Shown here piece after piece: positions 1,638-7,830 of a stretch of 10,622 bases of DNA; within the stretch, counting starts at the first letter, position 1; each line of letters starts with the position of its first letter. Origin of the DNA: a virus; the UHGV virus genome UHGV-0118722. The stretch is one strand, 5' to 3'. Below the pieces are notes generated by a model, which did no database searches, was not told where the DNA came from, and worked only from the letters and a program-made list of their open reading frames with translations. The translations under genes and the position numbers were made by a program.

Positions 1638-1946
1638 TTAATATACGATCTGGTCTACATGATTACCAAAATCATCGTCGTCGTCCTCATCGCCACCATC
1701 TACAGATGGCCAATCAACAAACCAGCCAGCGTAAAGATGCAGCGTTCGGAGAACATCACTTGCGGGAGCATCAAGGGTGTTAACGAATCCCATATAGCTA
1801 TTGGGATTTGCCCCATCTATGGCTTCAGTGATCATGTCCTCGGTAATGTCACCGGAGATAATGCTTAAACGCCCGGAAACTTCTTCATTATCATCAAATT
1901 CGATAATGGCATCTCCGCCTAATGGCGCTGCGATTTTAATCTGCAT
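1638..1946 (-). CDS. Hypothetical, extremely acidic 102-aa protein with a poly-Asp segment; last gene of the operon
   Basis: Strong ribosome-binding site AAGGAG 6 nt upstream of the ATG (1944-1946). The start overlaps the last codons of the upstream 995-aa gene (stop at 1936-1938). About 17 Asp and 6 Glu against 3 Lys/Arg, including DGGDEDDDDD. No family recognised. Confidence 0.65.
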   Translation of the reverse strand: MQIKIAAPLGGDAIIEFDDNEEVSGRLSIISGDITEDMITEAIDGANPNSYMGFVNTLDAPASDVLRTLHLYAGWFVDWPSVDGGDEDDDDDFGNHVDQIVY

Positions 1947-4923
1947 TATTTAGCTCCTTTGCCACACCTAATAACAGTTCCAGCAATCCGTCACCATTCA
2001 TCAGTGATGCGGCAGCGGCCTCTTTGTCATGATACAACTGAAGAGCCATAGAGAATACTTCCGTTGCTGACGTTTTGGAAATAGTCGGTGATTTCTGCCG
2101 AATTTTCCCGGTGTTACTTACTGAGGCTGGCGGGTATACCTTCGCCATATAAATATTACTCAATCGAGATCTGAAGCACCATTCAGGCTTGCCACGCCCA
2201 CCGATATTAACGAAAGATGGCTTATCCCCTTCAACATTGGCCTTCAGAAATGACCGGGCTTTCTCTAACAAACCAGGGTTACTGTACTCAAGATGATGAC
2301 CCAGCTCGTGCCACAGTGCACTTGCATTTTCATCGTTCAAATTGACAGCAACAACACCATTAAGATTTGCATATGCCCTTCCCTGGTGGTGAACCACCTT
2401 TGATAAGGTCGAAATTTTACCGCCGGTCAGGCGATAAATATCAGCAAGTTCCTTGCGCAGGTCTATCCCACCATTCTGTCCAGCGCGAGCTTCTTCCACT
2501 TCTTCCGTGATAAAAGAGTCGGCCCACTCAAGAGCTTTTTCTTCAGATACGGATGAGTTTGCGATCGCACTGTTCATGGCAGATAACACTTTCTCGTGGA
2601 CCGAACCCATACTTCGCTGATTCATTTGCCAGCGTGTCTGCGGGTTATATGAGAATCGCTTAAGTAGTTGGTCAAGCTGCTCAAGTTCTTCTTCACTGAC
2701 ATACTTTTTAGCCTCACCAATAATGCCAGGGAGAATATTGCCGTTAGGATTAAACGCTCGCGAAAGGAAGAGTTTCAGCGCCCCTATGCCCTCCGATGCT
2801 TCAATATCACCAATAACCCGGTTAACAATGGCCGCACTCTTCGGATTAGCATCCGCCAACGCTCTGGCTACGATTTGCAGGGACGATACGACCTCACGCT
2901 GCATATCAGTCCTGATCTCATCAATAAACTCTGGCGTTATGCCGTGCTCTTTAAGGATATCCCGGCCTTCCGCCGTTACCCCATCGATATCACCGACATG
3001 TTTATTAACACGGCTTTGCAATGCCTTAAATGCCTTCAGAATTCCACGGGCATCATCCGCTTTACTAACGGCCTTCCTGAATGCTGGCAAGAAGTCTGAG
3101 TTAACCTCATTTTGTTGATCGGCCCACTGAATGGAGGCTTCTTTCATCTCGTCCAGAGTCAGATCACCCAACGCGGTATGGTCTGTGAATATGAGCGACA
3201 ACCTCTGAACCATTTCTGCCAATGGTGATGCCGAATGCGCCGCGCTAAGGAATGCTTTCACCCTGGTTGGGCGAATGGAAAACCAGTCAATAGCTGGTGG
3301 CATATCTCCGTTTTTTATCGCCTGCGCTATCTCGTCAAAGCCATCGCGCCCAAGGGAGGATGCGTGATTTAACAAGCCGCGAAGTAACGAATTGCTGATA
3401 CCGAATAATCGGCACCATTTTTTCACGTCGGCAACAGGCATTCGAACAAAATGCGCAAGCACTTGTACAAGCTGTTCATCCTGGGGATCTGTGCGGGAAA
3501 GCAGCCTGATCAGATGAATAATGTCTTTGATGCCGGATGCCCGATGTAATAGCAAACTGGTATACGGAGCAACACCGTTGTAACTACCGCCGGAAACGGA
3601 CTCGAAAAGACCGCCGGATATCCCTTGCATGCCTTCGTATTCCAGTTCCTGAGACACCTGGCGAAGGATATCCTGTAACGACACATCGCCGCCGCCAAAC
3701 ATATCCCCCAGCGCCTGGCCCTGGTGCTGTAACTCATCATTGATACGTTGAGCCATCAACTTAAAGGCGGTGGCCATACGCTTCGCGCTACGGTTATTCG
3801 CGACGATGAACAACGCGAGTGCTTTCACTTCCGGGGCCGTTTCGCTGAACATATCCCCCTGAGCAATAACATCGGTAATATGCTGGCCTGACTCCTTCGA
3901 TTGCCTTACCAGGTCTACCGCATCTTTCAATGCCGCCAGCGCCTTTTTATCGAGGCTATCCGCTGTCTCAATGCCATCAACAATAGTTGTCACAGCCTGC
4001 TTGTGCGCTTCTCCTGATAAAGCCTGCATCTGGACAAAATCATTGGCTGCCGCATTAAGCGCCGTCAGAACATTACGCATATCCGGATCAGGTTCTTCTG
4101 CAACCATCCTTACCAGGCGCGCATCCTTATATGCCTTGGCAAAGATCGCGTTTTGTATACGGTCTACAAGTTGCCGTGTTGGTCGCCCATCTTCCGTTAC
4201 AAGGCCAGCAGCCTGTGTGGCACCAACTTGCGTCATGAATCCGCGAATAAACGCGTCATTACTGCGGCTAAGCAGATCTCCGCTTTCTGACGGGTTAAAC
4301 AACGCCATCATCGCCGGTGTTATGCTGTCGGCATCAACAAAAGCCTTTTCACTGGCTGCCATTTCCTGGAGATCAGAAATATTTGAGTCCTTGGCAAACT
4401 GAACACGGTCAACCTTCGTTAACCGGCGGCGCACCAGTACCGGAGCCGTCATTGATTCAACCTTTTCAGGCCGTATGCCGAATTCGGTCGCATGTTCAAT
4501 CAGGTACTCCCGATACCGATCCGCATTACCGTCCTGATAGGCTTTAATGATCCCCATGGTCCGCCCATTACCTGACTCAACGGCATTGTCCTCACCAATT
4601 ATTGGCGCGCCATGGCTGGATAAACCGGAATCGGTAAGCTGGGCAGGACGCAAATCCTTGGATATCTGGTTGACCTGAAGAAGGCTGGATGCGCGGGTCC
4701 GGTCGCGCGGCTGAAGTTCCTGGGGATAGTCTGGATTAATTTTCCCATCCAGAGTATTGGATACCAAAAGAACTGAGGCATCGACGATATCAAACGCTGT
4801 TTTTACCTCGTCTCCCTTCGCTGTCACCACATACGAAACCCGCCCATAATCGGGCAGGTTCTTTAGCAGCTCGATCAGCGTTTCTATGCTGGTGGCCATT
4901 ACCACCTGATCGCTTAAGCTCAT
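1936..4923 (-). CDS. ddrB: Large 995-aa protein, DdrB-like by position and size, with a C-terminal HExxH zincin-like motif
   Basis: Uninterrupted 2988-nt ORF, fourth gene of a co-directional operon, beginning 12 nt after the preceding stop. HELGH is encoded at 2296-2310 (WHELGHHLEY) with a Glu 22 residues after the second His. The name comes from remembered P1 gene order (darA, ddrA, ddrB, about 108 kDa), not from an alignment. Confidence 0.75.
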   Translation of the reverse strand: MSLSDQVVMATSIETLIELLKNLPDYGRVSYVVTAKGDEVKTAFDIVDASVLLVSNTLDGKINPDYPQELQPRDRTRASSLLQVNQISKDLRPAQLTDSGLSSHGAPIIGEDNAVESGNGRTMGIIKAYQDGNADRYREYLIEHATEFGIRPEKVESMTAPVLVRRRLTKVDRVQFAKDSNISDLQEMAASEKAFVDADSITPAMMALFNPSESGDLLSRSNDAFIRGFMTQVGATQAAGLVTEDGRPTRQLVDRIQNAIFAKAYKDARLVRMVAEEPDPDMRNVLTALNAAANDFVQMQALSGEAHKQAVTTIVDGIETADSLDKKALAALKDAVDLVRQSKESGQHITDVIAQGDMFSETAPEVKALALFIVANNRSAKRMATAFKLMAQRINDELQHQGQALGDMFGGGDVSLQDILRQVSQELEYEGMQGISGGLFESVSGGSYNGVAPYTSLLLHRASGIKDIIHLIRLLSRTDPQDEQLVQVLAHFVRMPVADVKKWCRLFGISNSLLRGLLNHASSLGRDGFDEIAQAIKNGDMPPAIDWFSIRPTRVKAFLSAAHSASPLAEMVQRLSLIFTDHTALGDLTLDEMKEASIQWADQQNEVNSDFLPAFRKAVSKADDARGILKAFKALQSRVNKHVGDIDGVTAEGRDILKEHGITPEFIDEIRTDMQREVVSSLQIVARALADANPKSAAIVNRVIGDIEASEGIGALKLFLSRAFNPNGNILPGIIGEAKKYVSEEELEQLDQLLKRFSYNPQTRWQMNQRSMGSVHEKVLSAMNSAIANSSVSEEKALEWADSFITEEVEEARAGQNGGIDLRKELADIYRLTGGKISTLSKVVHHQGRAYANLNGVVAVNLNDENASALWHELGHHLEYSNPGLLEKARSFLKANVEGDKPSFVNIGGRGKPEWCFRSRLSNIYMAKVYPPASVSNTGKIRQKSPTISKTSATEVFSMALQLYHDKEAAAASLMNGDGLLELLLGVAKELNNAD

Positions 4924-4935
4924 CCCTGTTACGCC

Positions 4936-7217: not shown

Positions 7218-7218
7218 G

Positions 7219-7821
7219 TTAATTTCCTGCTTTCAGTTGCTTAAGACGACGTTTGAGTTCGCCATTCCGTGCCTTTTCGTTATTGAGTCGGCCCGTCTCC
7301 TTATCCAGCTTCGCCCGCAAATCAGTGATCTGCTGTTGATTGAAAGACACCGAATTCTGCGCGGACTTATAAGCGGCAACCACCTGAGCATTCCGCTGTT
7401 TTGCTTCTTGCAGGCGCTGAAAGTTGGATTTAACTGCCGGTTTCTTGTCTACCGGATTGGCAACACGCTTCGCTTTGGCGATCAGTGATTTCTGGAATTT
7501 TGCGGAGTTTTTGCGGGCCGCCTGTCCCATGACGGTACCAAGCGTCTTGATATCCGGCGACTGAGCGTTAGGAATAGCTTTTCCATTCAGTTTCACAGAC
7601 GATATATCGCCAGTATCGTTTACCTGTATGGCAAGAATTTGTCCGTCGTTAAGAACCAGCTTTGCGGTTTTAACTTTAACGCCATCTTTCGTTGTTGCGC
7701 GGTTGCTGGAGTCAACCTCAATTACCGTAACCCCGGTTTTATTGATCGCCGCGATAAGGGATTTCAGCCCCTTTTCATTAACCTGGTCAAAATCGACCGT
7801 TGCATACTTATTTTTCGTCAT
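7219..7821 (-). CDS. hdf: 200-aa paralogue of the central part of the downstream 639-aa protein, Hdf-like
   Basis: The ORF track gives 7219..7830. I prefer the second ATG (7819-7821) because AGGA lies 8 nt upstream of it, whereas the first ATG has no usable spacing. Shared motifs with the 639-aa protein include KNSAKFQ, encoded by a 21-nt stretch that is 20/21 identical between the two genes. Confidence 0.7.
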   Translation of the reverse strand: MTKNKYATVDFDQVNEKGLKSLIAAINKTGVTVIEVDSSNRATTKDGVKVKTAKLVLNDGQILAIQVNDTGDISSVKLNGKAIPNAQSPDIKTLGTVMGQAARKNSAKFQKSLIAKAKRVANPVDKKPAVKSNFQRLQEAKQRNAQVVAAYKSAQNSVSFNQQQITDLRAKLDKETGRLNNEKARNGELKRRLKQLKAGN

Positions 7822-7830
7822 CTGACACAT

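Follow-up and report, generated by a model that had tools for sequence, protein, structure and literature searches.

The hdf-darA-ddrA-ddrB-hxr block of a P1-like darA operon in virus genome UHGV-0118722, most likely a recently stranded remnant

Virus genome UHGV-0118722 is represented here by a stretch of 10,622 nucleotides (nt), referred to as the window, in which the list of open reading frames (ORFs) places five tightly packed ORFs at positions 1638-7830, all on the minus strand. A first-pass annotation had taken these genes for the anti-restriction (Dar) module of phage P1. The locus raises the question of whether they are indeed the darA operon of P1 and, if so, whether this copy can still serve a phage. 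As judged from sequence comparison, the five genes are the darA operon of P1, a system that is already known. The region is read as part of a darA operon, namely its hdf-darA-ddrA-ddrB-hxr block, from a P1-like phage-plasmid (Punavirus), and this copy is most likely a recently stranded, weakly expressed remnant; the probability given to this reading is roughly 0.9.

Identity of the five genes

Window 1539-9577 matches positions 24146-32836 of the P1 genome (NC_005856) at 98.2% nucleotide identity (megablast against phage records). Within this match, the dar stretch aligns with P1 over 6420 nt at 98.2% identity and with a single gap, and for this reason the layout of the five genes cannot be due to chance. 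The P1 annotation calls the matching genes hdf, darA, ddrA, ddrB, and hxr. Record AJ000741 gives the order as promoter, lydA, lydB, ORFIII (hdf), darA, ORFV (ddrA), ORFVI and ORFVII (together ddrB), ORFVIII (hxr), and terminator. At the protein level, identity to the P1 counterparts is 99.0% for Hdf, 98.4% for DarA, 98.3% for DdrA, 98.7% for DdrB, and 95.1% for Hxr. The first-pass annotation had proposed a protein comparison with P1 DarA, Hdf, DdrA, and DdrB as the check on its assignment, and the identities of 98-99% for these four proteins bear the assignment out. The exact DarA sequence is found on 229 public contigs and the exact Hxr sequence on 181, with E. coli (Escherichia coli) as the source label.

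hdf (7219-7830, minus strand) encodes a basic protein of 203 amino acids (aa), or 200 aa when read from the second ATG at 7821, with a calculated mass of 22.1 kDa and an isoelectric point (pI) of 10.2. Hdf contains the Pfam domain DarA_N at residues 13-109 (E 1e-21), belongs to PHROG 1620, 'Hdf-like antirestriction' (E 5e-80), and matches PDB chain 9ukm_H over residues 1-203 (E 4e-122). darA (5298-7217, minus strand) encodes a protein of 639 aa and 69.4 kDa, which reaches 1091.6 bits with the NCBIfam equivalog NF052326, anti_RE_DarA (cutoff 350). DarA contains the Pfam domains DarA_N (66-204) and DarA_C and matches PDB chain 9ukm_I over residues 1-639; the full-length sequences of both DarA and Hdf are matched by PDB entries 9ukm and 9vz0. 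The 200-aa protein had earlier been called a paralogue of the central region of the 639-aa protein. The paralogy holds, as both proteins carry DarA_N and BLASTP aligns them at 29% identity (E 0.001), but the homologous part of DarA is residues ~66-283, that is, the N-terminal third (DarA_N) and a coiled coil, and not a central region.

ddrA (4936-5301, minus strand) encodes an acidic protein of 121 aa (12.9 kDa, pI 4.07) that belongs to PHROG 1855, 'DdrA-like anti-restriction protein' (E 1e-57), and has no family match in Pfam or NCBIfam. ddrB (1936-4923, minus strand) encodes a 108.8-kDa protein of 995 aa whose N-terminal part holds a ParB-like domain and whose C-terminal part holds an HExxH region. 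DdrB matches PHROG 2299 over its full length, and its residues 36-167 (window 4423-4818, minus strand) match the Pfam domain ddrB-ParB, PF18763 (133.6 bits, cutoff 27.6, E 5e-39). hxr (1638-1946, minus strand), the ORFVIII of AJ000741, is the last gene of the operon and encodes a protein of 102 aa and 11.1 kDa. The earlier statement that none of these proteins has a nameable domain except the HExxH motif is outdated, since DarA_N, DarA_C, and ddrB-ParB exist in Pfam and structures are available as PDB 9ukm and 9vz0.

The packing of the genes was read directly from the sequence. The hdf/darA junction is TAA-C-ATG with a 1-nt gap, and the darA/ddrA junction is ATGA, a 4-nt overlap in which the start of ddrA overlaps the stop of darA. 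A 12-nt gap separates ddrA from ddrB, and an 11-nt overlap joins ddrB to hxr, whose start overlaps the ddrB stop. These junctions (+1, -4, +12, and -11) agree with the first-pass description of five co-directional genes with gaps of -11 to 12 nt and an ATGA overlap. The order and sizes that it gave for P1 hdf-darA-ddrA-ddrB are likewise those found, in the order of AJ000741 and with masses of 22.1, 69.4, 12.9, and 108.8 kDa. A terminator hairpin with a 12-bp stem lies at 1542-1573 (minus strand), and the stem is present in both the minimum free energy and the centroid folds. The terminator annotated in AJ000741, directly 3' of ORFVIII, maps to about 1534-1607 of the window. An Rfam scan of the whole window gave no family at the gathering score.

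The darA-operon half of a Dar system is present here as a DarA orthologue, an Hdf paralogue just upstream, and DdrA and DdrB downstream in order. The idea that the five genes form an unrelated operon that resembles Dar in size and order only is refuted by the 98% nucleotide identity to P1 and by the curated-family, equivalog, and PDB matches, and its probability is practically nil.

Two side observations concern the reading frames. hdf has two in-frame ATGs (7830 and 7821), which give an Hdf of 203 or 200 aa. The ATG at 7821 has the better-placed Shine-Dalgarno sequence (AGGA, 8 nt upstream) and is the start used in loci of the public collection (200 aa); AJ000741 gives both starts, and the Hdf chain in PDB has 203 residues. 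An antisense ORF inside ddrB (3971-4402, plus strand) is the counterpart of P1 'iddB'. It has 143 aa here, compared with a coding sequence of 399 bp (132 codons) in P1, the stop being different, and it is probably not a real gene.

The late promoter and the flanks of the block

The BLAST match to P1 splits at 7957/7958, where 651 bp are absent (L001 8920-9570, in P1 locus coordinates). Lost with it are the entire lydA gene, lydB except for its last third, and four bases of the six-base -10 hexamer in the late promoter LPdar. Reading of both parental sequences places the join at a TA microhomology of 2 nt, and the minus-strand junction consists of AAGTTACTTTGCA, the shared TA, and AAGGAGAGCG. 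The remnant of lydB (7807-7956, minus strand) comprises its last 50 codons and has no start codon. The -22 box of LPdar (AAGTTACTT; 7963-7971, minus strand) is kept and is identical to the annotated P1 -22 region, and the 4-nt spacer is also kept. The -10 hexamer position (7953-7958, minus strand) reads TAAAGG, whereas P1 has TACCAT. Six late promoters are annotated in the first half of P1, and all six combine a 9-nt box and a 4-nt spacer with a hexamer whose second base is A and whose sixth is T; no shifted hexamer in the window ends in T. The last base of the hexamer is taken to be essential, and from established knowledge of how sigma-70 recognises the -10 element we infer that LPdar is severely weakened. 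Late transcription from LPdar through lydA-lydB into hdf is not the arrangement found at this locus. The lesion bears on the activity of this copy and not on the identity of its genes.

The deletion junction was found in none of the public collections searched. It has no exact match in genome_contigs, viral_contigs, or metagenome_contigs, and in BLAST searches the 467 E. coli complete-genome records and 475 PLSDB plasmids with matches to the junction region all lacked it. These records carry the two halves apart, and therefore each of them keeps the deleted segment. The closest relatives (L002 and L005-L007, at 99.85% identity) retain lydA, lydB, and LPdar. In the 6420 nt of dar sequence, the window differs from its sister contigs at two window-specific positions, one in hxr and one silent in darA.

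Upstream of the damaged promoter lies lydC (7992-8273, minus strand), which is intact and encodes a holin-like protein of 93 aa (Pfam Phage_holin_3_3) with 97.8% aa identity to P1 LydC. lydC is not a Dar component and is now the only lysis-related gene upstream of hdf. cin (8401-8961) and cixL, also upstream, are intact.

The same deletion can be read in another way, in which the module is functional in a live P1-like phage-plasmid and the deletion is a tolerated loss of accessory lysis genes. The dar genes would then be expressed by read-through or from the remaining promoter elements, and the insertion sequences (ISs) would be simple insertions or part of a cointegrate with a small plasmid. 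This reading is considered unlikely. The P1 essentiality table lists lydA as non-essential in both its screen and literature columns and lydB as non-essential in the literature column, but growth of P1 suffered when lydB was knocked down by CRISPR interference (CRISPRi). This copy still has lydC, and a further gene, lydD, is located elsewhere in P1. Of the promoter, the -22 box survives, but the -10 hexamer has lost the final T that is invariant in six of six P1 late promoters. None of the five ORFs is disrupted, and all are nearly identical to their counterparts in copies with lydA, lydB, and the promoter. Further points on this reading come from the flanks.

The P1-derived DNA forms an 8.46-kb fragment bounded by IS1 on the left and by an IS903-family element on the right. 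Window 1-779 is ColE1-type mobilisation-plasmid DNA (mbeD region), and window 1-1537 is 99.2% identical to the ColE1-type mobilisable plasmid pRHB31-C15_3 (5.1 kb, E. coli), its IS1 included. Over window 1-800 the identity is 99.9%, and the plasmid has IS1 at the same place. The IS1 of the window (~780-1537) starts about 6 nt past the terminator hairpin, which is about 750 bp nearer the operon than the IS1 of P1, and the P1 gene isaB is absent. It is 96.5% identical to the annotated IS1 of phage Rac-SA53, its transposase frames are broken into a 54-aa InsA-like and a 107-aa InsB-like piece, and no target-site duplication was seen around it. Flanks matching the P1 map had been reported in the first-pass annotation. 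Part of this is correct, as lydC and cin are present; the remainder is not, as lydA, lydB, and isaB are missing and IS1 is displaced by ~750 bp.

On the other side, the inverted repeat of the IS903-family element (9995-10622) begins at 9995 with GGCTTTGTTGAATAAATCAG and cuts the Sv' tail-fibre segment of the Cin-invertible C segment at 9994/9995. The element carries a DDE_Tnp_1 transposase ORF at 10050-10619 (minus strand). The window contains neither cixR, U, U', and Sc nor darB, ulx, and the head genes. In P1, darB and ulx lie 7-14 kb beyond the IS1 side, at 9995-17236, and that side consists here of ColE1-type plasmid DNA.

The left flank suggests an IS1-mediated fusion or an assembly join at IS1. 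IS1 can form cointegrates, which counts in favour of a live phage-plasmid; non-P1 DNA on both sides of the 8.46-kb fragment and an invertible tail-fibre segment cut by an IS903-family element count against it. An assembly join would make the locus a partial artefact, in which the joins to the ColE1-type plasmid and to IS903 arose from repeat collapse at multicopy ISs and the real locus is an ordinary P1-like plasmid or remnant. Each of the two outer junctions coincides exactly with an IS end, the IS1 has no target-site duplication, and the left 1537 nt are contiguous in an independent 5.1-kb plasmid, all of which would fit such an artefact. So would the lengths of 5-10 kb found for the majority of public contigs carrying this DarA allele, as expected for assemblies that break at IS copies. 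However, the same IS1-hxr junction is found in five independent public contigs, and the 651-bp deletion lies in unique sequence with a 2-nt microhomology, a kind of join that assemblers do not normally create. An assembly artefact in parts of the arrangement is considered quite improbable. The IS1 that abuts hxr in the five sister contigs differs from that of the window at eight positions, and the IS1-hxr junction had no exact match in genome_contigs. A chimeric IS1, formed between the plasmid IS1 and a dar-lineage IS1, was considered as proof of recombination; the differences from both are interspersed with no readable crossover, and the comparison was uninformative.

The preferred reading, that of a stranded remnant, rests on several observations taken together, namely the deletion with its TAAAGG hexamer, the non-P1 flanks, the tail-fibre segment cut by IS903, and the mosaic, IS-rich contexts of the sister loci. 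The activity of this copy is doubtful because lydA, lydB, and an undamaged late promoter are missing and non-P1 DNA lies on both sides. Several points weigh against a remnant. All five frames are full length, and nothing in the coding sequence points to lost function. The block could still be expressed through residual activity of LPdar or by read-through from lydC, and a weak sigma-70-like site upstream of lydC (8428-8401, minus strand) could drive read-through into the dar genes. In addition, the window is only 10.6 kb long, and the remainder of a P1-like genome, with darB, ulx, and the head genes, could be located elsewhere on the same replicon or in the same cell. The intact reading frames are explained by recent decay, since only two substitutions over 6.4 kb separate the block from relatives that keep lydA, lydB, and the promoter.

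The wider distribution of the allele was also surveyed. Public assemblies contain the exact DarA allele in 431 indexed blocks (L002-L007 were examined), most of them on contigs of 5-10 kb. The longer contigs are IS-rich mosaics with scr sucrose genes, a porin, a colicin, MbeD, or the chromosomal genes corA and hsdR. These contexts indicate a widespread, decaying lineage of P1 remnants in E. coli. One sister contig, L004, has a different left partner, in which an inverted P1 repL fragment is joined to lydB (9254-9262). Its breakpoint falls within the same ~3 nt of lydB as the deletion in the window (window 7955-7960), with GGA on one side and TAAAGGAGAGCG on the other. A Cin-mediated deletion at a quasi-cix site was considered and rejected, as the similarity between the lydB breakpoint and a cix half-site is weak and the crossover falls within the site and not beside it. 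The breakpoint shared by the window and L004 does not look like a cix site, and a Cin quasi-site does not explain it.

DdrB and Hxr at the end of the operon

DdrB carries a single HExxH motif, HELGH, at residues 872-876 (window 2296-2310, minus strand), which is the motif noted in the first-pass annotation. The pattern W-H-E-x-G-H-H-x-E is invariant across DdrB homologues of 40-53% identity. The C-terminal region of DdrB has no Pfam match and no PDB sequence match at E <= 0.1 in single-sequence and profile searches. Iyer et al. (2017) defined the DdrB-like ParB family on P1 DdrB and predicted a C-terminal zincin-like peptidase, which was proposed to process DdrB to about 76 kDa (PMC5512222). 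The assignment of the DdrB C terminus as a zincin-like peptidase is a prediction that rests on that study.

Hxr is a strongly acidic protein with a net charge of -20, a pI of 4.05, and a poly-Asp tail. The P1 record labels it 'possible repressor; homolog of Xre', and PHROG 2292, which it matches over its full length, is a family of unknown function. An Xre-like helix-turn-helix repressor, which would have an all-alpha fold, was rejected as an identity for Hxr, with no helix-turn-helix family found in Pfam or NCBIfam and no structural neighbour. A profile search of 1.84 billion representatives recovered Hxr relatives of about 97-100 aa with an acidic tail and a conserved VLR...W...WP core. Matches of the same profile in large proteins (SprB-repeat/CHU_C, DUF3854, and an Ig-like surface protein) are probably compositional and were set aside. 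One relative, P0021 (184 aa), contains two tandem Hxr-like domains, a natural duplication of the family. An AlphaFold2 model built from ten sequences is of the alpha/beta type with a disordered tail; its mean pLDDT (predicted local distance difference test) score is 75.5, with values of 70-90 in blocks over residues 1-80. Hxr has no detectable relatives of known fold.

The position of hxr is conserved in divergent P1-like loci. L012 and L015 keep the order cin-lydA-lydB-hdf-darA-ddrA-ddrB-hxr, with Hxr 37-42% and DdrB 42-59% identical to the proteins of the window. The ddrB/hxr overlap is 11-14 nt in these two loci, and the same overlap is also present in the short contigs L011, L013, L014, and L016. 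As a separate observation, L015 carries a gene for a HicB-like antitoxin at 4886-5326 (minus strand) that lies between ddrA and ddrB on the opposite strand to them and breaks the P1-type tight packing. By these comparisons, hxr is conserved as the terminal gene of the operon and is translationally coupled.

Neither the main text nor the supplement of the virion study (PMC9024508) lists Hxr as a P1 virion protein. hxr was non-essential in the P1 CRISPRi screen, and the paper on that screen is the only one in the literature found that mentions hxr and ddrB together. No published Dar role or functional test of Hxr was found in the searchable literature. It is tentatively suggested, at odds well short of even, that Hxr may be a fifth functional component of Dar, an acidic partner of DdrB whose ratio would be fixed by translational coupling. 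This suggestion is compatible with the charge of -20, the conserved acidic tail, the conserved overlap, the position inside the operon terminator, the lack of relatives of known fold, and the absence from the virion list. Possible roles of Hxr include an inhibitor or 'immunity' protein that would restrain the ParB-like nuclease or the HExxH peptidase of DdrB until packaging, a loading chaperone, and a DNA-mimic antirestriction factor.

As a discovery, the window has little weight, being one more near-identical copy of Dar; its use is mainly as a guide for annotation. P1 Dar has been studied since 1987, and its genes, packaging order, presence in virions, and 2026 in-capsid DarA-Hdf structure are published. 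For P1 specialists, the window offers a natural variant in which the dar genes are parted from the lysis genes and from an intact late promoter. It also draws attention to hxr, which is mis-annotated as a possible Xre-like repressor and is a conserved, coupled, acidic terminal gene.

The Dar system of P1 and its relatives

The function of the block is described here from work on P1. Dar proteins are packaged in the P1 head, are ejected with the DNA, and protect it against type I restriction (PMC12810830), in agreement with what the first-pass annotation stated on capsid packaging, co-injection, and protection. An EcoSal review also credits Dar with protection against bacteriophage exclusion (BREX) and states that it acts only in cis on packaged DNA (PMC12707154). 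Mass spectrometry of P1 virions placed DdrB (108.7 kDa), DdrA (13 kDa), DarA (69.4 kDa), and Hdf (22.1 kDa) in the head. The role table of the same study assigns the determination of head size and of Dar incorporation to Hdf and DarA, antagonism of EcoA to DdrA, and assistance in the addition of DarB to DdrB (PMC9024508). Cryogenic electron microscopy published in 2026 (PDB 9ukm and 9vz0) resolved 55 pairs of DarA and Hdf at the penton-hexon junctions of the inner capsid surface, where they touch DNA. The pairs are gone after full ejection, and DarA residues 1-69 are not present, which fits cleavage by the prohead protease. The packaging order in P1 is Hdf and DarA first, followed by DdrA, DdrB, DarB, and Ulx.

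On the P1 model, the dar operon would be transcribed late, and Hdf and DarA would be the first to enter the procapsid, where the 55 pairs on the inner surface would set the head size. DarA and Hdf would be required for loading DdrA, DdrB, Ulx, and DarB, with DarA needed for the packaging of all other Dar proteins. The prohead protease would remove the N-terminal ~70 residues of DarA, and DdrB would also be processed, its own C-terminal HExxH domain being the predicted protease. During infection, the Dar proteins would exit the capsid with the DNA and shield it in cis against type I restriction. EcoA-type systems would be countered by DarA, Hdf, and DdrA. DdrB would help load DarB, which would counter EcoB and EcoK.

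Among known systems, the closest is the P1 darA operon itself (AJ000741; NC_005856 24244-31230, lydA-lydB-hdf-darA-ddrA-ddrB-hxr). The five genes have the same order, strand, and junctions in both, with the same terminator hairpin after hxr and the same -22 box, lydC, cin, and cixL upstream. Unlike P1, the window is without lydA and two thirds of lydB (651 bp) and has TAAAGG in place of TACCAT at the -10 position. It is also without isaB, and next to the terminator stands a diverged IS1 whose transposase frames are broken. The module occurs at 97-99% identity in other P1-like phage-plasmids of Enterobacteriaceae (P7, RCS47, SJ46, JL22, D6-type, and several hundred E. coli plasmids), and more distant P1-like versions with 36-79% aa identity keep the order cin-lydA-lydB-hdf-darA-ddrA-ddrB-hxr. 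A broader relationship connects the block with the polyvalent or injected effectors described by Iyer, Burroughs, Anand, de Souza, and Aravind in 2017, in which DdrB supplies the founding DdrB-like ParB domain together with a C-terminal HExxH, and DarA and Hdf carry DarA-N (PMC5512222). In contrast to polyvalent proteins, the dar functions are split over coupled genes and not fused in one giant polypeptide. T4 IPI*, another capsid-packaged antirestriction protein, follows the same principle: it resides inside the head, enters the host with the DNA, and blocks a restriction system there (PMC12810830). Unlike T4 IPI*, Dar is multi-component, unrelated in sequence, and tied to head-size determination, and it acts in cis on packaged DNA.

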